This document shows positions 258 to 41,308 of a stretch of 64,000 nucleotides of DNA, one piece after another; the first letter of the stretch is position 1; every line of letters begins with the position of its first letter. Under the pieces are notes generated by a model. That model saw only the letters and a list, made by a program, of their open reading frames with translations. It was not told where the DNA came from and made no database searches. The position numbers and the translations under genes are program-made. Source of the DNA: Anaerolineales bacterium (GTDB lineage: Bacteria; Chloroflexota; Anaerolineae; Anaerolineales; UBA11858). The stretch covers positions 7,916 to 71,915 of the forward strand of contig JBARSJ010000320.1 of the NCBI GenBank assembly GCA_049644685.1. The letters run 5' to 3'.

Positions 258-941
258 ATGAAAGGGTCGTCAAAAATACTAAAGGTATTGGCAATAATAT
301 TATTAGGCATGACAGCCGCCATGAACTTACTGGGAGGTGCAGGAACATATTGCGCTGCATTCTCAAATAATGTAGGCTACCGAATGGCTTTTAAGGCAAT
401 AATGGATTACCGTTGGCTTTATCAGATAGTGATGGTTACAACCATCTTTACAGGCATCGCAGGGGTTATGGCTCTAATGAAGCTGCTCAAAGGAAAACCA
501 GGGGTTTACCGGTTCACAATGATAGTTCTGGGGATTGGGACTGTCCTGGGAGGAACACAATTCTTTGCCTCTCTGACATTAAGAGGAGCTGCCACGCCTG
601 CCAACGTAAAATTCTTTACCAATCTGGTCACGCTGGTCTACTTCTTAATCCTCGGATTACCAGGGATTAAAGATAAGGTTGATTTTTCCAACCCTTCTGA
701 TAAATCTGAGATGAACTCTGCCGGTGGATTGGTTGCATTTTTAGCAGGCATCACAACCTTGACCATTTTCTCTTGGGCAGGACCTTCTCATACCTTTTTC
801 GGTGAAAACTGGGTGTTTGTCTTTGAAATACCTCTTCTGGTTGTCGGTACAACCCTGATCGTCGGAGGATTTTTAACTGTGCTGCGGGAGATGATAAATT
901 ATTATTCACAACAGGACACAACCCAAGAACAAAAGATTTAA
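258..941 (+). CDS. Polytopic membrane protein, unknown function
   Basis: 227-aa ORF with about 6 hydrophobic helices. GGAG lies 8 nt upstream of the ATG. No family recognised. Confidence 0.6.
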   Translation: MKGSSKILKVLAIILLGMTAAMNLLGGAGTYCAAFSNNVGYRMAFKAIMDYRWLYQIVMVTTIFTGIAGVMALMKLLKGKPGVYRFTMIVLGIGTVLGGTQFFASLTLRGAATPANVKFFTNLVTLVYFLILGLPGIKDKVDFSNPSDKSEMNSAGGLVAFLAGITTLTIFSWAGPSHTFFGENWVFVFEIPLLVVGTTLIVGGFLTVLREMINYYSQQDTTQEQKI

Positions 942-14240: not shown

Positions 14241-14633
14241 TTACAGATCAAGACCGGGATTGAGATCGCCCCCGTCAGAGCCCAGATCCGGAAGATCGCG
14301 TTCAATGTCCTCGGGAGATTGACCTTTTTCCAACCGGTTGACCACCTCATCAAATTCGGGGCCCATATCTTCCCCTAATTCCCGGCTCATCTGGCGCATC
14401 ATCTGTCCAAGTGCCTGGGGATCATCATCCAGCCCCGCTAATTGTTCCGGGTCAGCCAGCGATTCCAGCCTGGCTTCATCTGAACGGGCAACCCGGACAG
14501 GTTTGATTATCCGCTTGATATGCGTGCTCTCACACTTGGGACAACCCATTGTCTGGGATCCGTATTCCTGATAGGTCAGGAATATTTCAAAAATTTGATT
14601 ACAATCAGTACAATAGTATTCGTAATTTGGCAT
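14241..14633 (-). CDS. FmdB-family zinc-ribbon protein
   Basis: MPNYEYYCTDCNQIFE...CPKCES zinc ribbon followed by an acidic tail. Confidence 0.8.
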   Translation of the reverse strand: MPNYEYYCTDCNQIFEIFLTYQEYGSQTMGCPKCESTHIKRIIKPVRVARSDEARLESLADPEQLAGLDDDPQALGQMMRQMSRELGEDMGPEFDEVVNRLEKGQSPEDIERDLPDLGSDGGDLNPGLDL

Positions 14634-14695: not shown

Positions 14696-15328
14696 ATGAA
14701 TGACAACTCATCGGCTTCTGTTTTTAATCTGAATCCGCCTAACCCTCTATTAATTGTGATCTCCGGTCCTTCCGGGGTGGGGAAAGATTCTGTGCTGGAG
14801 GTGATGAAATCTCGTGGTTTGCCTTTTCATTTTGTAATCACTGCCACAACCCGCAAACCCCGTCCAGAGGAAGTAGATGGGGAGGACTATTTTTTCCTCT
14901 CCGAAGATGAATTCGCCAGAATGATTAATGAAGGAGAACTGCTCGAATATGCAGTAGTTTATCAAGATTACAAGGGCATTCCAAAATCACAGGTAAGAGA
15001 AGCTCTGGCAAGCGGGAAAAATGTCATCATGAGGATCGATGTCCAGGGAGCTGAAACTGTGCGGAATCTGGCTGAGGACGCGCTGTTGATTTTTTTGTCA
15101 CCCCAGAGTGACGAAGAGTTGATTAATCGCCTAAAAAAGAGAAATACAGAAACCAAAGAAAGTCTTAAATTGAGAATTGCAACCACACGCCAGGAGTTTA
15201 AGAAGATTGAGCTGTTTGATTATATTGTGGTGAATAGAGATGACCGCTTAAACGAGACCGTAGATGCGATTGAAGCCATAATCAAAGCAGAACAACAGCG
15301 AGTTTACCAACGAGAAGTAAATTTATGA
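14696..15328 (+). CDS. gmk: Guanylate kinase
   Basis: ISGPSGVGKDS P-loop, TTRKPRPEEVDGEDYFF. The stop overlaps the next ATG (ATGA, 4-nt overlap). Confidence 0.93.
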   Translation: MNDNSSASVFNLNPPNPLLIVISGPSGVGKDSVLEVMKSRGLPFHFVITATTRKPRPEEVDGEDYFFLSEDEFARMINEGELLEYAVVYQDYKGIPKSQVREALASGKNVIMRIDVQGAETVRNLAEDALLIFLSPQSDEELINRLKKRNTETKESLKLRIATTRQEFKKIELFDYIVVNRDDRLNETVDAIEAIIKAEQQRVYQREVNL

Positions 15329-16377
15329 ACCAGAGTTATTTACCCGTTTCCTCAGAAAAAAATGATCCAGGTCAGCAGTTAGTATCCATCATCCTCTCTG
15401 AAATCTCCCGGAAAAATAATATAGATTTATCTCAGGATCCTGTTGCGCTGGAGCGGATCAAGGACGCTGTGGAGAAAGCCAGATTGGAGCTGGACACAAA
15501 TCCCCAGACAGAGATAAACCTTCCTTCTATCAGTGCGAACGCTTCCGGTCCAATAAATTTCCAAAGGGCGGTGACCCGGGATGATCTTTACCCGCCTGGA
15601 TCAGACTCGGAAAATTTAGGACGGCATCAGGAACGGGTGGACGGATACACAAGTCAAGCCCAACCATCCCTGAGAATTAAGCTGCCTGACCGGAAACCGC
15701 TGGTTACCTACTCTTTGATGGTCATTAATGTGGTTTTGTATCTGCTTCAAATTCTGACCGATTATCTGGTAGGTTTTGATGTTCCAGCAGCGATAGGTTT
15801 AAAAATAAACGAGTTGATTTTAGCAGGTCAGTATTGGCGGCTGGTAACGCCCATGTTCCTGCATGGATCAATTATTCATCTTGGATTTAATATGTATGCC
15901 CTTTATATCCTGGGAAGAAGGGTGGAGCGCTTCTTTGGATCATTCCGTTTCCTGGGATTATATTTAATCGCCGGTATTGCTGGAAATATGTTTTCTTTCT
16001 TCTTTACCCCGGCCCCTTCTCTGGGATCATCTACGGCGATCTTTGGCATCTTAGGGGCAGAAGGCGTGTTTATCTACCAGCATAGAAAATTAATCGGGGA
16101 TCAATCCCGGGTTGCTCTCTGGCAAATTATCCAGGTCGCAGCGGTGAATCTCTTTATTGGTATGTATCCCGGGATTGATAACTGGGGACATATCGGAGGA
16201 CTGATTGGGGGAGCAATTTTCACCTGGTTCACAGGACCCGTTTTTCAGGTTCTGGGTGCCCCTCCGCTGCTCCGACTGGAGGACAAACGGGCCAACGAAA
16301 CCATCGGGATTGGATTTGCCCTTCAGCTTATTGTGCTGATTGGTCTAATTGCCCTGATTATCTATTTTAGAAGTTAA
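15325..16377 (+). CDS. Rhomboid-family intramembrane serine protease with Hsp70-IIB-like N-terminal domain
   Basis: Rhomboid core: WRLVTPMFLHGSIIHLGFNM, GSSTAIFG (catalytic Ser), HIGGLIGG (catalytic His), 6 TM helices. See the finding at 15379-15588 for the N-terminal module. Confidence 0.85.
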   Translation: MNQSYLPVSSEKNDPGQQLVSIILSEISRKNNIDLSQDPVALERIKDAVEKARLELDTNPQTEINLPSISANASGPINFQRAVTRDDLYPPGSDSENLGRHQERVDGYTSQAQPSLRIKLPDRKPLVTYSLMVINVVLYLLQILTDYLVGFDVPAAIGLKINELILAGQYWRLVTPMFLHGSIIHLGFNMYALYILGRRVERFFGSFRFLGLYLIAGIAGNMFSFFFTPAPSLGSSTAIFGILGAEGVFIYQHRKLIGDQSRVALWQIIQVAAVNLFIGMYPGIDNWGHIGGLIGGAIFTWFTGPVFQVLGAPPLLRLEDKRANETIGIGFALQLIVLIGLIALIIYFRS

Positions 16378-30538: not shown

Positions 30539-32197
30539 TTACATCATACCGGGCATTCCGCCGCCCATACCACCCATACCACCCATGGGCATATCGCCGT
30601 CTTCTTTCGGCTCGTCAGCGATAAGCGCTTCTGTGGTCAGGATCATTGCCGCAATGGATGCTGCATTCTCCAGCGCGCCACGGGTTACCTTGGCGGGATC
30701 GATCACACCGGCATCAACCATATTAACGTATTCCTCACTGAGGACATTGTATCCGATGTTTTTATCTTTTTTCTCTTCCTGGAAGCGGCGTACGTTTTCC
30801 AGAATTACTGCTCCGTCTTTCCCGGCGTTTTCAGCAATTTTCCGCAGGGGGACTTCCAGAGCTTGGCGGACGATTTTTACACCCACCTGGGCATCAGCAT
30901 ATTCCATCTTGAGTTTGTCGATGGCCTTGGTGGCGTTAATCAGCGCCACACCGCCTCCGGGAACGATGCCTGCCTCAACGGCAGCGCGGGTTGCGGAGAG
31001 AGCGTCTTCCACCCGGTGTTTCTTTTCTTTCAGTTCGGTTTCAGTCGCTGCGCCAACTCGAATGATCGCTACGCCGCCAGAAAGTTTTGCCAGACGTTCC
31101 TGCAGTTTTTCGCGGTCGTAATCGCTGGAGCTGGAATCGATCTCATTTCGGATTTGCTGGATGCGGGCCTTGATTTGCTTGCTGTCTCCCTTTCCTCCGA
31201 CAATAGTGGTGTCGTCTTTGGTGGAGATCACCTTTTCGGCTTTACCCAGATCGTCAACAGTTGCGCTATCCAGCTTGCGTCCCAGATCTTCAGAAATCAC
31301 GGTGGCGCCGGAGAGGATTGCGACGTCCTGGAGCATGGCTTTGCGGCGGTCGCCGAATCCGGGGGCTTTAATAGCCAGAACGTTAATCATGCCGCGAAGT
31401 TTGTTTAGTACCAGGGTGGCAAGAGCTTCGCCATCTACATCTTCAGCAATGATTACCAGATCCCGTTTACCCATCTGAACCAAGCGTTCCAGCAGGGGAA
31501 CTAGGTCCTGAGCAACGGAAATCTTGGAGTCATGGATTAGCAGGCTGGGCTCTTCAATTACCGCTTCCATCTCATCAGCATTGGTGACGAAATAGGGAGA
31601 AAGGTAGCCGCGGTCAAACTGCATACCTTCTACGTACTCAGTTTCAAATGCCAGTGTTTTGGATTCTTCAACAGTGATCACGCCGTCTTTTCCGACTTTG
31701 TCCATTACATCTGCGATCAGTTCGCCGATTGAACGGTCCTGAGCAGAGATGCTGGCCACGTTGCCGATTTCTTCTTTGGTGGTGACATCTATAGCGCTTT
31801 TGCCGAGTTCCTCGGAAACCGCCTTGGCGGCTGCTTCAATGCCATATTTCAGCAGCATGGGATTGAATCCGGCTGCCAGGTTTTTCATACCCTCGGTGAC
31901 GATGGAATGAGCCAGAAGGGTTGAAGTAGTGGTGCCGTCACCAGCGATGTCGTTGGTTTTGGTGGCTGCTTCTTTCAGCAGCTGGGCACCCATATTTTCA
32001 AATTTATCCCTAAGCTCAATTTCCTTGGCGACGGTCACGCCATCATGGGTGATTGTGGGGCTGCCGAAACTTCGGTCCAGGGCAACATTGCGTCCTTTGG
32101 GACCCAAGGTGGTGATAACGGCTTTCGCCAATTTATCCATTCCGGCCTGTAGTTTCCGTCGGGCTTCTTCTGAGAAAACAATTTGCTTTCCTGCCAT
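30539..32197 (-). CDS. groEL: Chaperonin GroEL (60 kDa)
   Basis: Full-length match ([15 protein letters not shown]..., GDGTTT, C-terminal [14 protein letters not shown]). No groES lies upstream. Confidence 0.97.
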
Positions 32198-32296: not shown

Positions 32297-32323
32297 TTAG
32301 CAGTCAAATATACGGACTGCTAA
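32297..32323 (-). promoter_or_regulatory. CIRCE operator (HrcA binding site) upstream of groEL
   Basis: TTAGCAGTC-N9-GACTGCTAA, a perfect inverted repeat about 100 nt upstream of the groEL ATG. Confidence 0.85.
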
Positions 32324-32464: not shown

Positions 32465-33805
32465 TTAAGGCACTGGGGTTGCCTCTAATAAATAGCAGAT
32501 TGCCTCATTTTCAGCCACAATGCTCATCAAGATGGGATCGCTGCCGAAATTTTCTTTCAGCTCTGCCAAAATCATTAACGCTTCCGGGCAGTAATTTTGA
32601 CCGGGACGGCTGAGTGCGGCAAGTACAGATCCGTAACGGGCGTAATAATAAGCGACATCAAAATTATTGAGTTCCAATGCCTGGACGGCAGTGCCGCCCA
32701 CTTCGTTTTCTTCAGCCGAGCATCCCACTACCGCGCATTTCAGTACTGGCAGGGCACCCTCATAATTCCGGGCCCGGACATAAATATCCCCCAATTGACC
32801 GTAGGTGTTCGCGTTGGTGGGATTGATTGCTATAGCTTTTTCCCCATTTACTGCTGCGATAAAAAATTCCCCATCCCGGGAATAGGTTTTGGCAATTGCG
32901 ATATAGGGGAGCGCATCCTCAACCCCGTTGGACTTATTGATTGTAATTGCTTTGGCAAAATAATCTAATGCGGTGTCATATACTTTTAATGCCCGGTATA
33001 AGACCCCGATCCGAATGTAAAGAAATGTCAGATTGGGATTGATTTCGACTGCCTTCTCAAATTCCTCGATGGCATATCTGTATTCCCCCAGCGCTTCCAG
33101 CACAGTTCCATAGACCCGGTGGGTATCCATTAATTCCGGACCCTGGTTTACCGCCAGCCGGGCATGTTCCTCTGCCTGGGCTTTTTGATTTTGATCCAGA
33201 AGCACTTCTGCATAAAATGCCAGCGCCAGGCTGTTGTTCGGGTCGAGAGTAATTGCCAGGTTTGCAGCCTGTTCAGCTTCATTTAGCCAATCCTGTTTTT
33301 CCTGATCACTGGTTGCTGAAGAGGTTGCGCTCCAGTCCAGCACCAGGGCGCGGATGGCCTGGACTGTGCTGTCTCCCGGAGCCCCTTCAGCAGCGAGTTG
33401 GATTTCCTGACGGGCCAGGGATAATCGTTCCGTCCGCTCTTCAGTGGTGGATAACAATGCGGAAGAATACGTTAATAGCCGCGCCAGTTCAGCACGGACC
33501 TGGGCATTATCTGGATGGAGTTCCAGAACATCATAATAGGCATCAATAGCATCTTTCCCCTCAGGATCGAATATCTTTCCGGCTTCAAAATATGCCTGCC
33601 CTTCCTGGACGAGAGAATCCACTGTCCTGGTCGCTGTCGGCGTGGGGAGAAAGAGGGGTTCAAACTGACCTTCCGGGTCGTTTACCTCAAATGCAAACCA
33701 TAAACCTGCCGCAATAATGGCAACCAAAATCAGGATGCGGTTGAGATTAAAGGGAGGTTTATTTTTACTGAATGTAGGTCGTTTTCCGGTTAGTTTATGA
33801 TCCAT
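32465..33805 (-). CDS. Membrane-anchored TPR-repeat protein
   Basis: 446 aa with an N-terminal TM helix followed by tandem TPR units. Paralog of 33905-35125. Confidence 0.8.
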   Translation of the reverse strand: MDHKLTGKRPTFSKNKPPFNLNRILILVAIIAAGLWFAFEVNDPEGQFEPLFLPTPTATRTVDSLVQEGQAYFEAGKIFDPEGKDAIDAYYDVLELHPDNAQVRAELARLLTYSSALLSTTEERTERLSLARQEIQLAAEGAPGDSTVQAIRALVLDWSATSSATSDQEKQDWLNEAEQAANLAITLDPNNSLALAFYAEVLLDQNQKAQAEEHARLAVNQGPELMDTHRVYGTVLEALGEYRYAIEEFEKAVEINPNLTFLYIRIGVLYRALKVYDTALDYFAKAITINKSNGVEDALPYIAIAKTYSRDGEFFIAAVNGEKAIAINPTNANTYGQLGDIYVRARNYEGALPVLKCAVVGCSAEENEVGGTAVQALELNNFDVAYYYARYGSVLAALSRPGQNYCPEALMILAELKENFGSDPILMSIVAENEAICYLLEATPVP

Positions 33806-33904: not shown

Positions 33905-35125
33905 TCAGGGGGTCGGCGTGATTTCGGTCAAGTTTTCTGTGCAAATGGACAAACCTTCATTGGCGTTGATTACAGCAATGTCATTTTCAGAAACCTGGCT
34001 GAGCATGGTTTGAAATATTGGCACAGCTTCCTCGCATTTGTTCATCCGCGCCAGAGTGATGCCATAGGCGGAAAAAATTTCTATTACCCGGGTTTTATAA
34101 GAAAGCGGTACACCTTCCACTATATCCCCGTTTTCTGTAGTGCCGCCCCGGACTGCCAGAGTAAGGTATATAAGCGCTTGATTGTATTCCAGGTTTCTGA
34201 AATAAAGCACGCCCAGATTTCCCTGCATGAGCGGATTTGTAGGGGCATCCCTGACCGCCAGTTCACCGTATTGGATGGCTTTATTATAGATGCCATCCAG
34301 GAGATAGATGCGGGAAATTTCAAAATCCGGAGTAGGATCCGCGGGATTGAGAGCATTTGCCTGACTGAAAGAGGTTACTGCTTTGTCATTTTCCTGATTA
34401 GCATAATAACAATACCCCAGCATAAGATGGAGATTTGGAATGGCATTGTTGATATTCAGGGCGCTTTGATATTCCCGAATAGCTTCACTGAAATTTCCTG
34501 TCCAATACAACACATATCCCCGCGCCCGGTGGGTTTCTAATAAGTTTGGACCTAACTCCAAGGCTTTGAGAGATTCTGTGCTGGCTTCTTCGTAGTTTTC
34601 GCTGTCAATCAAGATTTCCGCATACACTGCATGAGCCAGCGGGTTTTTTTCCGCCAGGGACAAAGCCCGTTTGATAGAAACCTCAGCTTCGATCAGATCA
34701 CCTAAAAAATCAAGGGCCCAGGCTTTCATTACGTGACCGAGGGGATTGTCTGGGTTGCGAAGCAAGGCTAATTCAGCATTTTCAAGAGCTGCTTCCGGTT
34801 GTCCTGCCAGGATTTGAACTCTAGCCAAAGAAACATAGAGGGAAGAATCTTCTGGATTTGCCAGAATAGCCTCCCGGTAGGCTTCGATGGATTGACTCAA
34901 CTTGCCTTCTTTAAACAGAGCTTGTGCTCTGTTGGTATAGGTTTCAGGATTCTCTGTTGGGGTTACAGTTGGAATGAATGACAGCTCAATGTCAGGAGCA
35001 ACTTCCTGGTTAAAATATACAACAACCGCAATGAGCACCACCAGGACAATAATCCGCCAGGGATTGGATCTCTTGCGCGGTTTTTTGGTCATTTTCCAAT
35101 TACTTCCGCTAAGGTACATGCGCAC
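33905..35125 (-). CDS. Membrane-anchored TPR-repeat protein
   Basis: 406 aa with an N-terminal TM helix followed by tandem TPR units. Shares the post-anchor PTxTPT motif and a C-terminal Cys-containing end with its neighbour. Confidence 0.8.
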   Translation of the reverse strand: MRMYLSGSNWKMTKKPRKRSNPWRIIVLVVLIAVVVYFNQEVAPDIELSFIPTVTPTENPETYTNRAQALFKEGKLSQSIEAYREAILANPEDSSLYVSLARVQILAGQPEAALENAELALLRNPDNPLGHVMKAWALDFLGDLIEAEVSIKRALSLAEKNPLAHAVYAEILIDSENYEEASTESLKALELGPNLLETHRARGYVLYWTGNFSEAIREYQSALNINNAIPNLHLMLGYCYYANQENDKAVTSFSQANALNPADPTPDFEISRIYLLDGIYNKAIQYGELAVRDAPTNPLMQGNLGVLYFRNLEYNQALIYLTLAVRGGTTENGDIVEGVPLSYKTRVIEIFSAYGITLARMNKCEEAVPIFQTMLSQVSENDIAVINANEGLSICTENLTEITPTP

Positions 35126-36009: not shown

Positions 36010-36369
36010 TCTGTTATCAAAGAAATTTTTTTCTGGTCAAATTCCAAAAAACCCTATCAATTTGAGAGCAGTGGGGATATCCCCTATTAATGATCAGCTT
36101 GCCTTGAGCTTTTCGCTTCGCCCGTGCCGCCTGTCCTGCCTGCACTTAGCGAAGCACAGCGAAGACGAAGTGAATTTATCGAAGGGCTCCGTATAAATTC
36201 CTCCGAGATGGAATCGAGGTGCTCAGGATGACATTATGAGGGAAATTGTGCTAATCAAGCCAAGAGCGACCTGTTGGATCCTTCCAGATTCCACCGGGTT
36301 CTTTGTTGTTCAAAAAACCCCTGTTCTATTAACATCCCATTAGAAAAACCCTCTTAGCACTTGCTTTTC

Positions 36370-36398
36370 TTGACTGCCAAGTACCCTCGTGATAGACT
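36370..36398 (+). promoter_or_regulatory. Sigma-70-like promoter of the hrcA-grpE-dnaK operon
   Basis: TTGACT-17 nt-TAGACT, 11 nt upstream of the CIRCE element. Confidence 0.5.
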
Positions 36399-36409
36399 AT
36401 AAACCGTTA

Positions 36410-36436
36410 TTAGCAGTCTACCGCTGAGAGTGCTAA
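36410..36436 (+). promoter_or_regulatory. CIRCE operator upstream of hrcA
   Basis: TTAGCAGTC-N9-GAGTGCTAA, 15 nt before the hrcA ATG. Confidence 0.85.
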
Positions 36437-36451
36437 ACACTGAAAGTTATT

Positions 36452-37501
36452 ATGGCTGGATTAACAGAAAGACAAAAACTAGTCCTGGCGCTGCTGGTTC
36501 GCGATTACGTGGATACTGCCGAACCAATCAGCTCTGGACGGCTGGTGGCTAATTATCAGCTGGATTTCAGCTCAGCCACAGTTAGAAACGAGATGGCATT
36601 TCTAGAGCAGAGGGGATTTTTACTCCAACCCTACACCTCTGCTGGCAGAGTGCCTACCAAGGAAGGATACCGATATTTTGTCCAACAATTAATGGGCGCA
36701 AATGAGCTGCCAACACCAATTCAAGAGATGATCCGGCACCAGTTTTATCAAGCCCGGAATGATGTGGATGATTGGCTTTCGCTGTCTGCATCTGTTCTTG
36801 CTCAGCACAGCAAAGTTGCATCGATTGTGACCCCGCTGCATACAGAAAAAGCCCGCTTAAAACACATTTCACTCTTATCGACCCGGGGACATCAGGTGCT
36901 GCTGGTTATTATCCTGAATAGCGGGGAAGTTCACCAGCAAACATTGGTTCTGGATGAACTGCTTAACCAGGAACAACTAGATGCCAATGCAGGACAGATC
37001 AACCTGCTGGCTTCCGGGATGGATGCCAAAGAACTGGAAGGAATCAGCAGCGAATTAGAGGACACTCCCTTGGAGGAAGTGTTCATGGTTGTAAAGCGGG
37101 TAATCAAGCAGGCGGAAGTTATTTCTACCGGGGATATTTACCGGGATGGATTAGCCAACATGTTATCTGAACCAGAGTTTTCTGAACCAGAGAAAGCAAA
37201 GCAAACGTTGGAATTGTTTGAGGATCGGGCAATGATGGATGACCTGCTTTCCAGAACTGTTTTTGAAAGTGATACCCCCGGTGTACATGTAATCATCGGC
37301 GGAGAGGATACCTGGGAACAGCTGGGAGATTGCTCACTGATCATCGCCAGATATGGTTCAAAAGAACATGCAATGGGCGCTGTGGGAATCCTCGGTCCGC
37401 TGCGAATGGCATACAGCCGGGGTGTCTCTACGGTCCGGTTTGTGTCAGATCTCATGAGCGAACTTATTTCAGAATCAATGAGCAACGAAAATCTTATTTG
37501 A
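36452..37501 (+). CDS. hrcA: Heat-inducible transcription repressor HrcA
   Basis: LTERQKLVLALLVRDYVDTAEPISSGRL..., FSSATVRNEMAFLEQRGFLLQPYTSAGRVPT. 349 aa. Confidence 0.95.
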   Translation: MAGLTERQKLVLALLVRDYVDTAEPISSGRLVANYQLDFSSATVRNEMAFLEQRGFLLQPYTSAGRVPTKEGYRYFVQQLMGANELPTPIQEMIRHQFYQARNDVDDWLSLSASVLAQHSKVASIVTPLHTEKARLKHISLLSTRGHQVLLVIILNSGEVHQQTLVLDELLNQEQLDANAGQINLLASGMDAKELEGISSELEDTPLEEVFMVVKRVIKQAEVISTGDIYRDGLANMLSEPEFSEPEKAKQTLELFEDRAMMDDLLSRTVFESDTPGVHVIIGGEDTWEQLGDCSLIIARYGSKEHAMGAVGILGPLRMAYSRGVSTVRFVSDLMSELISESMSNENLI

Positions 37502-37518
37502 AGGAGAATTTTTCAGGT

Positions 37519-38100
37519 ATGAAAGACAAGAAAGAGGAAAAAGGAAAACCGGAGATTGAAAAAGAGCAGAATGGTTCCGCCTTCAATGAGGAAAGCGCCT
37601 TTGAAGACCAGGCAGCAGATCCTGAACTTGAGGAGCAGGTTGCCGCTTTAAAAATAGCTCTGGAAGAAATGGATATGAAAGCAGAAGAATACCTGGATGG
37701 CTGGCAACGAGCACGGGCTGAATTTGCTAATTATAAAAAGCGTATCACCCGTGAAAGCATGGATATCCGCCAGGTAGCCCGGGGAGAAGTAATCAAACTT
37801 TACCTTGATATCGCTGATGACCTGGAAAGAGCTTTGCAGGAAAAACCAGAAATCGGGGAAGGGGAGACCTGGGCTGAAGGAATTGAGATCATTTTTCAAA
37901 AATTACGCGCAAGGCTTGAATCGGAAGGAATTAAACCGATGAACCCGATGGGGAAAGAGTTTAATCCGAACATACATGAAGCGTTGATGAAGGAAGAGAG
38001 TGAGGAATTTGAAAGCGGTCAAATTATTGAGGTAATGCAGGAAGGATACTGGATAGGTGACAAGGTACTGCGCCCAGCATTAGTGAGGGTAGCTGCCTAA
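37519..38100 (+). CDS. grpE: Nucleotide exchange factor GrpE
   Basis: Coiled-coil N-terminus, [13 protein letters not shown]-terminal beta domain ...[17 protein letters not shown]. The start is set at the ATG after the hrcA stop; the track start at 37330 overlaps hrcA. Confidence 0.93.
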
Positions 38101-38147
38101 AAAGGAATTATCTGCCAACAAAGTTAATTGAAAAAATGGAGGAAAAT

Positions 38148-40058
38148 ATGGCAAAAATCATAGGAATTGACTTAGGAACAACAAACTCTGCTGTAGCAGT
38201 GATGGAGGGTGGTGAGCCCACAATTATCCCTTCTGCGGAAGGTGACCGCCTTGTTCCATCTGTAGTGGCGATGAATAAGAATCATGAACGTCTGGTTGGC
38301 CGACCGGCCAGAAACCAGGCTGTAGTGAATCCGGAAAATACAATCACATCAATTAAGAGATTTATGGGCGGCAAGGCTTCTTCCCCGGAAATTGAAAGGG
38401 CAAGAAAAATGGTTTCCTATGAAATCATTGAAGCCCCCAATGGAGATGTCCGGGTTGTGATGGATGAAAAAGAATATTCTCCGCCTGAAATCTCTGCCAT
38501 GATCTTAGCGAAAATCAAGGCAGATGCGGAAGACTATCTGGGTGAAGCGGTTACCCAGGCGGTGATTACGGTTCCGGCTTATTTTAATGACAGCCAGCGC
38601 AATGCAACAAAAGACGCTGGAAAAATTGCCGGCCTGGAAGTTCTGCGGATCATCAACGAGCCAACAGCTTCAGCTCTTGCCTACGGCCTTGATAAAAAAC
38701 AAAATGAAGTAATCGCAGTCTATGACCTAGGAGGTGGGACTTTTGATATCTCCATCCTCGATGTCGGAGAAGGCGTTTTCCAGGTCCGGTCGACCAGCGG
38801 TGATACTTTCTTAGGCGGTGATGATTTTGACCAGAGGATTATTGATTATCTGGCTGACGAGTTCAAGAAAGACGAAGGAATTGATCTCCGGGAGCAACGT
38901 CAGGCACTCCAGCGCTTAAGAGAAGCGGCTGAGAAAGCAAAAATTGAGCTCTCGACCATGCAGCAAACTGAGATTAACCTGCCGTACATTACAGCAGATG
39001 CCTCGGGACCTAAACATCTGGTTAAGAAATTTAACCGCGCTAAACTGGAGCAGCTCACCGGTGATCTGATTGAAAAATCCATGAAACCTGTGAAACAAGC
39101 CCTGGACGATGCCGGCCTCTCTCCTTCAGATATCAATGAAGTGGTTCTGGTTGGAGGTATGACCCGTATGCCAGCGGTACAGGAAGCTGTAAGTAAATTA
39201 TTTGGCAAAGCCCCTCACAGAGGTGTGAACCCGGACGAAGTTGTTGCTGTTGGAGCTGCCATCCAGGCAGGTGTTCTGGGAGGAGAGGTGGATGACCTGC
39301 TGCTCCTGGACGTAACTCCACTGACTTTGTCAGTTGAGACTCTCGGGGGTGTGGCAACTCCGCTGATTGAACGGAATACCACTATTCCTGCCCGGGAAAG
39401 CCAGACTTTTTCCACTGCCAGTGACAATCAATCCCAGGTAGAAATCCATGTACTGCAAGGCGAACGCGCCATGGCAGCTGACAATAAATCTCTGGGACGC
39501 TTTATCCTTGATGGAATTCCCCCGGCACCGAGAGGCATACCTCAGGTTGAAGTCACTTTTGACATCAACGCTAACGGTATTCTAGAGGTTACCGCAAAAG
39601 ACAAGGCAACCGGGAAAACCCAGAACATCACTATCACAGCCAGTTCAGGTTTAAGTGATGAAGAAGTGGAAAAAATGCGAAAGGAAGCAGAGCACCACGC
39701 AGAGGAAGACAAGGTCAATAAAGAACAGATTGAAAGTCGCAATAACGCGGACACGCTGGCCTACACTGCCGATAAAACCCTGCGGGACCTGGGTGACAAG
39801 GTGCCGGAAGATATTAAAACTGAAGTAGAGAGCAAAGTCGCCGAGGTTCGCACAGAGTTGGAGAAAGAGACCATTGATGCTGCTCGTTTGCGGGAACTGA
39901 CCGACTCTCTTTCCTCCTCCCTTCAGAAGGTCGGGGAAGCCGCTTATCAGAGTGCTGGTGAAGCTGGTGACGGGATGCCTGAAGCGGATCCCGGGGAAGG
40001 AACAGGTGAGGGCGGTGATGAAGGCGATGTTGTTGAAGGTGAATTTGAAGACGTCTAA
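38148..40058 (+). CDS. dnaK: Molecular chaperone DnaK (Hsp70)
   Basis: [14 protein letters not shown]..., DLGGGTFD, and a full substrate-binding domain and lid. GGAGG lies 5 nt upstream of the ATG at 38148; the track start at 38136 adds MEEN. Confidence 0.97.
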
Positions 40059-40084
40059 TCCGTTTAGGTGAAAATTAACTCAAA

Positions 40085-40125
40085 ACCGGGGAAATGATAA
40101 ATTATTACACTCCCCGGTCTTTGGG
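40085..40125 (+). terminator. Possible attenuating terminator between dnaK and dnaJ
   Basis: ACCGGGGA ... TCCCCGGT stem followed by CTTTGGGTTT. Confidence 0.4.
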
Positions 40126-40174
40126 TTTCAGGAAGGCTTAGCGGTATTATGCAGGATTTCATACGGTAACAGTT

Positions 40175-41308
40175 ATGGCCAAACGCGATTATTATGAAAT
40201 ATTGGGTGTATCCCGGGGTGCATCGGAAAGCGAGTTGAAGAGCGCGTTCCGGAATCTAGCCAGGAAGTATCACCCGGATGTTAACGATGCCCCTGATGCG
40301 GAGGATAAGTTTAAGGAAATCAACGAAGCCTATGGGGTTTTGTCTGATTCAGATAAACGCGCAGCCTATGACCGCTTTGGGCATCAGGGAGTAAGGGGCC
40401 CAAGTGGAGGTCCAGGTTATGAAACAGTAGATTTTTCAGATTTTGCAGATATCTTCGGAGATATGTTTGGTTTTGGTGGTTTTGGGGGTCGATCCCGCAC
40501 TGCGAGCAGAAATGCTCCCCGCAGAGGGGCAGATCTACAATACCAGGCCACCATTTCTTTTAAGGAAGCAGTTTTCGGGGCAGAAAAAGAGATTGATATA
40601 ACCAAAGATGAAACCTGCGATACTTGTAAAGGTGATGGTGCGAAACCAGGCACCTCCCCAAGAACATGTTCGGAATGCCAGGGACGAGGGGAAGTCAGAC
40701 AAACCAGACAAACGCTGTTGGGTTCTATGGTTCAAGTTACTACTTGTCCAGCTTGTTCTGGTCGGGGCAAAATAATTGAAAATCATTGTCCTACTTGTCA
40801 TGGCAGAGGCAAAATCCGAAAGACCCGCCGCAAGAAAGTCAGCATCCCGGCAGGAGTAGATGATGGAACGCGCATCAGACTGGCTGGAGAAGGACAGCCG
40901 GGAGAGAATCATGGTCCTCCCGGCGATCTATATCTTATCGTTCGGGTAAGAACGCATAAATATTTCCGACGCAGAGATAATGATATCCTGTTGGATTTAA
41001 ACATCAACATAGCTCAAGCCACGCTCGGTGCAGAAGTAAAAGTGCCCACTGTGGATGGTGATGTCAAACTGAAAATACCTTCAGGAACGCAGCCGGGCAA
41101 GATTATCCGCATGAGAGGAAAAGGAGTGCCCTATCTTCGGAGCAGCTCCCGCGGGGATCAACTGGTGATTGTAAATGTGACCATTCCCCAACGGCTGGAT
41201 GAGGAAGAGAGAGGCCTGTTTGAGCAGTTGGCGGAAAAAATGGACAGTGAAGTTTTACCGCAGGAACGGGGCTTCCTTGAAAAAATAAAAAATGTTTTAG
41301 GTGGATGA
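40175..41308 (+). CDS. dnaJ: Co-chaperone DnaJ
   Basis: J domain (DYYEILGV...HPD), G/F region, four CxxCxGxG zinc motifs, C-terminal domains. Confidence 0.96.

Follow-up and report, generated by a model that had tools for sequence, protein, structure and literature searches.

The functions of bacterial rhomboids are mostly obscure, and the understood cases point to membrane-protein quality control; in Bacillus subtilis YqgP, for instance, a cytosolic N-domain is regulatory, and the protein works as an adaptor in such quality control with FtsH (PMC7231995). In RHBDL4, a ubiquitin-binding motif (UIM) provides a cytosolic docking extension of the rhomboid, and a 2025 review of rhomboids lists only EF-hands, the GlpG N-domain, and the RHBDL4 UIM, with no Hsp70 fusion (PMC12615303). 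Our full-text literature searches found no publication on a rhomboid-Hsp70 or rhomboid-IIB fusion or on stand-alone IIB domains. Here, we analyze a 64,000-nucleotide stretch of DNA from an Anaerolineales bacterium (GenBank assembly GCA_049644685.1, contig JBARSJ010000320.1, positions 7,916 to 71,915 of the forward strand; referred to below as the window), which encodes a rhomboid protease with a module at its cytoplasmic N terminus that resembles subdomain IIB of the DnaK nucleotide-binding domain (NBD). The IIB lobe was copied from DnaK long ago, and the fusion is real, conserved, and undescribed. The domain pair is visible in precomputed Pfam annotations, yet it is uninterpreted there.

Nucleotides 15379 to 15588 translate to residues 19 to 88 of open reading frame (ORF) 15325-16377, the segment that a preliminary description of this DNA had aligned by hand, without gaps, to the window's own DnaK. 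Its count of 29 identities in 70 positions proved exact. BLASTP matches residues 13 to 85 to residues 229 to 301 of the same DnaK, again without gaps (30 of 73 identical; E = 2e-14). The Pfam Hsp70 profile PF00012 covers residues 17 to 88 with its positions 228 to 298 (of 599) and scores 40.6 bits (E = 1.3e-10), a significant match at about twice the gathering cutoff of 20.6 bits. NCBIfam DnaK models match residues 15 to 87, and phmmer against PDB sequences recovers E. coli DnaK (E about 1e-13); both place the module in the same register, with rhomboid residue n corresponding to E. coli DnaK residue n + 217. By these sequence scores, the Hsp70 similarity of the module lies far beyond chance. 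The proposal that the rhomboid carries an isolated IIB-like module without the ATPase core at its cytoplasmic N terminus is thus borne out by significant matches to both profile and structure.

The module descends from subdomain IIB of a DnaK-type Hsp70. It shares with DnaK the same helix-helix-hairpin fold, a long DnaK-type hairpin, and about 41% identity (DnaK residues 229 to 306), whereas subdomains IA, IB, and IIA, the linker, and the substrate-binding domain (SBD) are all missing. A recent origin from the genome's own dnaK was rejected: the module is 41% identical to the window DnaK, 41% identical to E. coli DnaK, and up to about 50% identical to other DnaKs. We also rejected an assignment of the module as an Hsp70/DnaK chaperone, since the PF00012 match is limited to the positions given above, with neither a complete ATPase domain nor an SBD; the NCBIfam DnaK equivalog scores of the rhomboid ORF are 42 to 57 bits, against cutoffs of 648 to 1019. 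As for the DnaK gene itself, which had been placed at 38148-40058, the longest ORF begins 12 nucleotides earlier, at 38136, and position 38148 is an internal methionine that is probably the true start.

We built a full-length AlphaFold2 (AF2) model on 117 aligned full-length orthologs, with a mean predicted local distance difference test (pLDDT) score of 82.8. In this model the module consists of a helix (residues 15 to 31), an LDLSQDP loop, a second helix (39 to 55), a β-hairpin (61 to 84), and a short helix (85 to 88), with the two longer helices and the hairpin at pLDDT 80 to 87. Foldseek searches of the N-domain against the PDB return Hsp70 NBDs as all of the top 50 matches (best, 5oow_A; E = 1.6e-7; 41% identity). 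The module superposes on DnaK IIB with a root mean square deviation of 1.2 to 1.8 Å over 75 to 76 columns, in agreement with the structural likeness first proposed, and the full-length model gives the same result. An autonomous helix-helix-β-hairpin unit is predicted, and the full-length model makes independent folding of the module plausible.

A family search across 5.8 billion proteins returned 2,533 relatives. Almost all of the best 120, which were inspected (53 to 93% identity), carry both PF00012 and the rhomboid profile PF01694, and the few relatives without a precomputed PF00012 match still show the module in the alignment. The fusion is present in more than 130 ortholog clusters at 47 to 93% identity. 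Restarting the search from the most distant member, P0114, led back to the same clade, down to 47% identity, and in the library clustered at 50% identity only 1 to 3 clusters are of the rhomboid type, from which we infer that the rhomboid-IIB fusions form one orthologous family. Sister rhomboids without the module were not found by the P0114 restart or in the 50%-identity library, searches that stayed inside the family and did not reach its boundary. All named members come from Anaerolineales, Chloroflexi, or Chloroflexota metagenome-assembled genomes, and a genome scan returned 4 close relatives only; the gene is a conserved, single-copy-looking gene of the Anaerolineales (Chloroflexota) lineage. 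Four database entries (P0013, P0020, P0287, and P0292) start inside the linker and look like alternative gene calls or products of truncated contigs.

Among close relatives, the ratio of nonsynonymous to synonymous substitution rates (dN/dS) is 0.14 to 0.30 for the module and 0.14 to 0.26 for the protease core, compared with 0.5 to 1.5 for the linker; the distant loci L005 and L007 were left out because their synonymous sites are saturated. The module is under purifying selection like the protease core, and the linker is nearly neutral. Together with the presence of the fusion in so many clusters, these values answer the question of whether the module is conserved in orthologous rhomboids in the affirmative. 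Five module residues are invariant (D38, A41, R44, L56, and G75), and L33, D34, P39, I45, A48, A52, I64, L66, P67, S70, A71, P76, I77, and H78 are nearly so.

To see what was kept and lost relative to DnaK, we set 115 rhomboid modules against 125 DnaK IIB segments in a columnwise comparison. In DnaK numbering, D251, L252, D255, A258, R261, A265, A269, and L273 are common to the two sets, as are L283, P284, I286, A288, G292, P293, and H295; these retained residues build the hairpin turn, cap the helices, and form the hydrophobic core. In contrast, E267, K268, K270, E272, and S274, each conserved in 90 to 98% of the DnaKs, are variable in the rhomboid modules, and likewise Q260, K263, T279, and N282. 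At E267, K270, and S274, where DnaK conservation is 96 to 98%, the top residue in the rhomboid modules reaches just 31 to 47%. By established Hsp70 structural knowledge, these three are the nucleotide-contact positions of IIB, and the helix-2 face that they share with K268 and E272 lines the nucleotide pocket in Hsp70. The alignment shows that the rhomboid module has given up the nucleotide contacts of IIB and preserved the fold core along with the exposed hairpin.

In helix 2, conservation is limited to the buried face, and the exposed face of the helix (DnaK 255 to 272) is not conserved. The strongly conserved exposed surface consists of the LDLSQDP loop and the hairpin tip, the latter better conserved than any other exposed stretch (family consensus, LP[YF]ISANxAGPIH); its L, P, I, A, G, P, and H are the same as in DnaK. 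Residues specific to the rhomboid family are Y31, L33, P39, S70 (from T287), N72 (from D289), and I77 (from K294). The module is net acidic, with a mean charge of -3.6, which argues against simple lipid binding.

The remainder of the protein is assigned by sequence motifs and profile to the rhomboid intramembrane serine proteases (PF01694; MEROPS S54), apparently catalytically intact. PF01694 matches residues 168 to 303 at 130.8 bits (E = 5.5e-38), compared with a cutoff of 22.6 bits. The Ser/His dyad pointed out in the preliminary description corresponds to Ser236 (in GSSTA; codon 16030-16032) and His289 (codon 16189-16191), both invariant in 117 orthologs, as are G234-S-S236-T, H185/N189, and the WR motif W171-R172. 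Because Ser236, His289, H185/N189, and W171-R172 are invariant in these 117 sequences, the protease should be active. In Foldseek searches the membrane part matches GlpG (target TM-score, 0.70 to 0.78, about 0.75; 21 to 26% identity) and also iRhom1/2, and pLDDT in the core is mostly above 88. The protein is not the canonical rhomboid with six transmembrane (TM) helices that it had been taken for: AF2 predicts seven, at residues 126 to 149, 183 to 204, 206 to 227, 237 to 252, 260 to 278, 286 to 303, and 324 to 349. The extra helix, TM7, exceeds every other segment of the protein in hydrophobicity, and it would place a 2-residue C terminus outside the cell in a predicted 6+1 topology.

This topology and the folded cytosolic N-domain are reminiscent of YqgP/GluP, a bacterial 6+1 TM rhomboid, and Joint Genome Institute (JGI) pipelines label the present family "rhomboid protease GluP." The N-domains differ, however: that of YqgP is a Mn2+- and Zn2+-binding domain with no described relation to Hsp70, whereas the present one is Hsp70-IIB-like, and Pfam and NCBIfam searches of it return Hsp70/DnaK only, with no homology to the YqgP N-domain detected. 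YqgP further carries a TPR domain at its extracellular C-terminal end, whereas the present protein ends 2 residues after TM7. An assignment as a YqgP/GluP-type rhomboid was rejected: the 6+1 TM helices and the cytosolic N-domain are present, but the protein ends at residue 350 with no C-terminal domain. GlpG of E. coli and Haemophilus influenzae shares the core fold, the Ser/His dyad, the WR motif, the H/N residues, and the presence of a small cytosolic N-domain, but it stops at 6 TM helices, and its N-domain bears no relation to the IIB-like module. Scores against the GlpG models are far below their cutoffs (TIGR04239, 56.1 versus 250 bits; NF008155, 37.4 versus 335 bits), and we do not regard the protein as a GlpG ortholog. 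The likeness to RHBDL4 and Derlin, rhomboid-fold proteins coupled to AAA+ ATPases, is one of concept, in that a cytosolic extension of a rhomboid-superfamily protein docks proteostasis machinery; their extensions are short eukaryotic motifs (UIM, VBM, and SHP), whereas the present one is a folded, chaperone-derived domain for which docking is proposed.

Several conserved elements flank the module and the protease core (Table 1). The N-terminal tail holds a short motif, M-x3-P-L-x-V-S, with conservation of 0.86 at L6, 0.86 at V8, and 0.88 at S9 (115 sequences), a possible short linear interaction motif. The P-, E-, Q-, S-, and G-rich linker varies from 16 to 41 residues across the family. In the juxtamembrane motif that follows it, conservation is 0.99 at P121, 0.90 at K124, and 0.96 at P125. 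The short strand in this motif (RIxLPDRKP) and the hairpin in the loop after TM6 (GP...PP.L.L.D.R) may form a small, family-specific cytoplasmic sheet.

Table 1. Coordinates of the rhomboid gene, its parts, and related features in the window
Feature	Residues	Position	Strand	Basis or remarks
Whole ORF, rhomboid protease	350 amino acids	15325..16377	+	N-tail, IIB-like module, disordered linker, 6+1 TM core
N-terminal tail	1-12	15325..15360	+	Predicted disordered, pLDDT 33
DnaK subdomain-IIB-like module	13-89	15361..15591	+	BLASTP, PF00012, Foldseek, dN/dS
Hairpin tip, L66-P-S-I-S-A-N-A-S-G-P-I-N-F79	66-79	15520..15561	+	DnaK 283-296
Acidic linker	90-116	15592..15672	+	Predicted disordered, pLDDT 31-34
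Juxtamembrane motif, R-I-x-L-P-D-R-K-P	117-125	15673..15699	+	Predicted short strand 117-119
Rhomboid core, TM1-TM6	126-303	15700..16233	+	PF01694; invariant motifs; Foldseek
Cytoplasmic loop after TM6, predicted β-hairpin 307-320		16234..16293	+	Conserved G304-P305, D320-x-R322
TM7	324-349	16294..16371	+	AF2 helix; Kyte-Doolittle 19-mer maximum 2.73 at 327-345
gmk (guanylate kinase)		14696..15328	+	NF011325, 280.8 bits
grpE, candidate partner		37519..38100	+	In hrcA-grpE-dnaK-dnaJ operon, unlinked to rhomboid locus
Window dnaK, longest ORF		38136..40058	+	
IIB-encoding segment of window dnaK	229-301	38820..39038	+	Paralogous counterpart of the module
CIRCE-like (controlling inverted repeat of chaperone expression) inverted repeats		32297-32323, 36354-36380, 36410-36436		1-3 mismatches; 0.02 expected by chance

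Isolated IIB modules are not confined to rhomboids. With the N-domain as query, an exhaustive phmmer search of 1.84 billion representatives identified proteins that combine an FHA-like domain with a pair of IIB modules, a TM helix, and a long C-terminal region (P0128, P0148, and their relatives P0276 and P0277; locus L008 7010-9793); a singleton combining TIR_2 with two IIB modules (P0124; L009 6001-6981); and a probably secreted protein with a signal-peptide-like N terminus, InlB-B repeats, two IIB modules, and Fib_succ_major (P0132). The neighbors of the P0128 gene encode an FHA protein, a Ser/Thr kinase, and an extracytoplasmic function (ECF) sigma factor. The FHA and surface types, too, have lost the nucleotide-contact residues and kept the core and hairpin, and the hairpin motif LP[FWY][IL]xA..G[PSA]xH is common to the rhomboid and the other isolated modules. 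These proteins differ from the rhomboid fusion in their tandem pairs of modules, their other partner domains, their small size as families (1 to 4 clusters each), and their other lineages. IIB behaves as a portable domain that was co-opted several times, and the rhomboid fusion is by far the largest family with an isolated IIB. Four further tandem-IIB entries (P0123, P0125, P0126, and P0144) were set aside as probable fragments and assembly or pseudogene products of ordinary Hsp70 genes. A 769-amino-acid protein, P0213, joins a TIR domain to a complete DnaK-like Hsp70 (NBD and SBD) and may represent the ancestor type of P0124.

The rhomboid gene lies in a conserved neighborhood. The gmk stop codon and the rhomboid start overlap by 4 nucleotides (ATGA); the two genes are therefore probably cotranscribed and translationally coupled. 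gmk lies directly 5' of the rhomboid gene in 6 of the 6 loci inspected (L001 to L005 and L007), and the order tmk, zinc ribbon, gmk, rhomboid, rplI is kept down to 51% identity. The conserved neighbors are housekeeping in character: tmk, an FmdB zinc-ribbon gene, gmk, rplI, and a RodZ-like gene. The FmdB-family protein, a CxxC-CxxC zinc ribbon with an acidic tail, is encoded on the opposite strand between tmk and gmk (14241-14633, minus strand), a placement also kept in L005 and L007. Scans for sigma-70 promoters and terminators around the rhomboid gene gave background-level results.

The chaperone genes of the window lie elsewhere, with the hrcA-grpE-dnaK-dnaJ operon at 36452-41308. The CIRCE-like repeat at 32297 precedes groEL (30539-32197, minus strand), and those at 36354 and 36410 precede the hrcA operon. 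Between groEL and a trmD-like gene sits a pair of minus-strand ORFs, 32465-33805 and 33905-35125 (446 and 406 amino acids), each with an N-terminal hydrophobic helix followed by TPR-like repeats.

Our preferred reading, to which the analysis as a whole gives about an even chance, is that the module would serve as a tethered protein-docking (adaptor) domain. The conserved hairpin tip and the LDLSQDP loop would form its binding surface, the disordered acidic linker of 16 to 41 residues would tie it to TM1, and the module would deliver a partner from the cytosol, or a substrate's cytosolic part, to the protease. Such a role would resemble those of the YqgP cytosolic N-domain and the RHBDL4 cytosolic tail, which act for their rhomboids. 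The recurrence of isolated IIB modules in other multidomain proteins is as expected of a portable interaction domain and favors docking. The homology and fold, the plausible independent folding, the breadth of conservation, the purifying selection, the loss of the nucleotide face, and the net acidic charge count on the same side. Several observations weigh against it. Modeled alone, the N-domain has a mean pLDDT of 63.5, lower than in the full-length model, although its topology is unchanged. In the loci inspected, the conserved neighborhood contains no chaperone, protease, or other candidate partner gene. A search of the window for CIRCE operators found no site near the rhomboid gene, and there is therefore no evidence that HrcA controls it. 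Finally, the hairpin may be conserved for purely structural reasons, given that all of the isolated IIB modules retain this motif, even in a protein that is probably secreted. The most skeptical explanation, that the module reflects chance similarity, misassembly, a wrong start, or a functionless, decaying relic, has nothing in its favor, is effectively refuted, and has next to no chance of being right: E values run from 1e-10 to 2e-14, the structural match is strong, synteny is conserved, dN/dS is 0.14 to 0.30, and the same architecture with the same start (M-x-Q/x...) recurs in more than 130 independent clusters and assemblies.

If the module does dock a partner, the sole specific candidates are the ClpB M-domain and GrpE, which recognize this lobe of DnaK; that the specific partner is one of these two is a tentative, minority possibility. 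The DnaK β-hairpin 276-302 contacts the GrpE four-helix bundle, and the Y285R substitution and deletion of residues 285 to 295 shift the dissociation constant for GrpE from 3.8 nM to 120 nM and 440 nM, respectively (PMC10825016). In Mycobacterium tuberculosis (Mtb), a model has the ClpB M-domain contacting DnaK through subdomain IIB only, at Met229 and Tyr257, and either alanine substitution (M229A or Y257A) costs DnaK its cooperation with ClpB (PMC8209680). The counterparts of these two residues are L257 and Y285 in E. coli DnaK and positions 40 and 68 in the rhomboid. It is precisely the retained hairpin that the two known bacterial IIB partners use on DnaK, which is the case for mimicry. 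The tip has nonetheless changed across the family in ways that count against both candidates: K294 has become I in 96%, D289 has become N in 83%, and T287 has become S in 96% of modules. At position 68 (DnaK Tyr285), 88% of the family have Y or F, but the window protein, its closest relatives, and the P0114 clade have Ser. Because of these systematic changes, a lineage-specific partner is at least as likely as ClpB or GrpE. In its full form, mimicry would make the module a membrane-tethered copy of the co-chaperone-docking lobe of DnaK, recruiting and possibly de-repressing ClpB, or alternatively recruiting GrpE, with IIB as a portable interaction domain; we consider this doubtful.

Taken singly, the two partners fare as follows. 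In the ClpB version, the module would bind motif 2 of the M-domain, in the manner of DnaK IIB, and recruit or de-repress the AAA+ disaggregase beside the rhomboid for the extraction of cleaved or misfolded membrane proteins, a bacterial analog of RHBDL4-p97 or Derlin-Cdc48. The IIB-only interface in Mtb makes an isolated module a plausible ligand, and of the two contact positions, 40 is V, A, or I and 68 is predominantly Y or F. However, the Ser at position 68 in the window protein and its closest relatives speaks against this version, the Mtb interface is resolved to the subnanometer level only, the Thermus thermophilus interface also needs subdomain IB, which the module lacks, and no clpB is linked to the rhomboid locus; we regard recruitment of ClpB as quite unlikely. 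Docking to GrpE, which would concentrate nucleotide exchange at the membrane or, as a decoy, titrate GrpE away from DnaK, we hold to be very unlikely, even though a normal grpE is encoded in the window and the long DnaK-type hairpin that contributes to GrpE binding is the best-conserved exposed segment of the module. Because DnaK without residues 285 to 295 still binds at 440 nM, most of the GrpE affinity must come from lobe I (residues 28 to 33 and 51 to 61), which is absent from the module. The altered tip residues, including Ser in place of Tyr285 in the window protein, and the unconserved exposed face of helix 255-272 also argue against GrpE, as does the lack of a CIRCE or HrcA signature at the rhomboid gene; a low-abundance membrane protease would presumably be a poor GrpE sink, and unrelated proteins, some of them extracellular in appearance, also keep the hairpin motif in their isolated IIB modules. 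An explanation with no external partner is that IIB serves as an intramolecular scaffold that modulates gating, membrane orientation, stability, or oligomerization, as proposed for the GlpG N-domain. The cytosolic N-domain of GlpG changes orientation and lipid interactions (PMC12615303), the hydrophobic family substitutions (Y31, and K294 to I77) could simply stabilize a stand-alone fold, and the strand 117-119 and hairpin 307-320 near the membrane might offer a docking site. We nevertheless think this explanation unlikely, since the variable, near-neutral disordered linker better fits a tethered, ligand-catching domain, the net acidic module disfavors lipid binding, and the hairpin tip is conserved on both faces.

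The fusion shows that Hsp70 IIB can exist as a self-contained domain and be kept by selection, both in this family and in three or more further architectures. This bears on Hsp70 evolution and on annotation, in that partial PF00012 matches should not be annotated as "DnaK," and perhaps on how minimal IIB probes for co-chaperone binding are designed. If the mimicry of DnaK were true, the rhomboid would be part of a bacterial rhomboid-to-AAA+ extraction pathway analogous to RHBDL4-p97 and to Derlin-Cdc48 in endoplasmic reticulum-associated degradation, and IIB would be a previously unrecognized portable interaction domain, used also by FHA-membrane, TIR, and surface proteins. If the module instead has a new partner, it would be a clean example of a chaperone fragment exapted as a scaffold. 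In the Anaerolineales, a DnaK lobe recognized by ClpB and GrpE has been kept on a rhomboid across the lineage, which suggests a testable physical link from intramembrane proteolysis to the cytosolic chaperone network.

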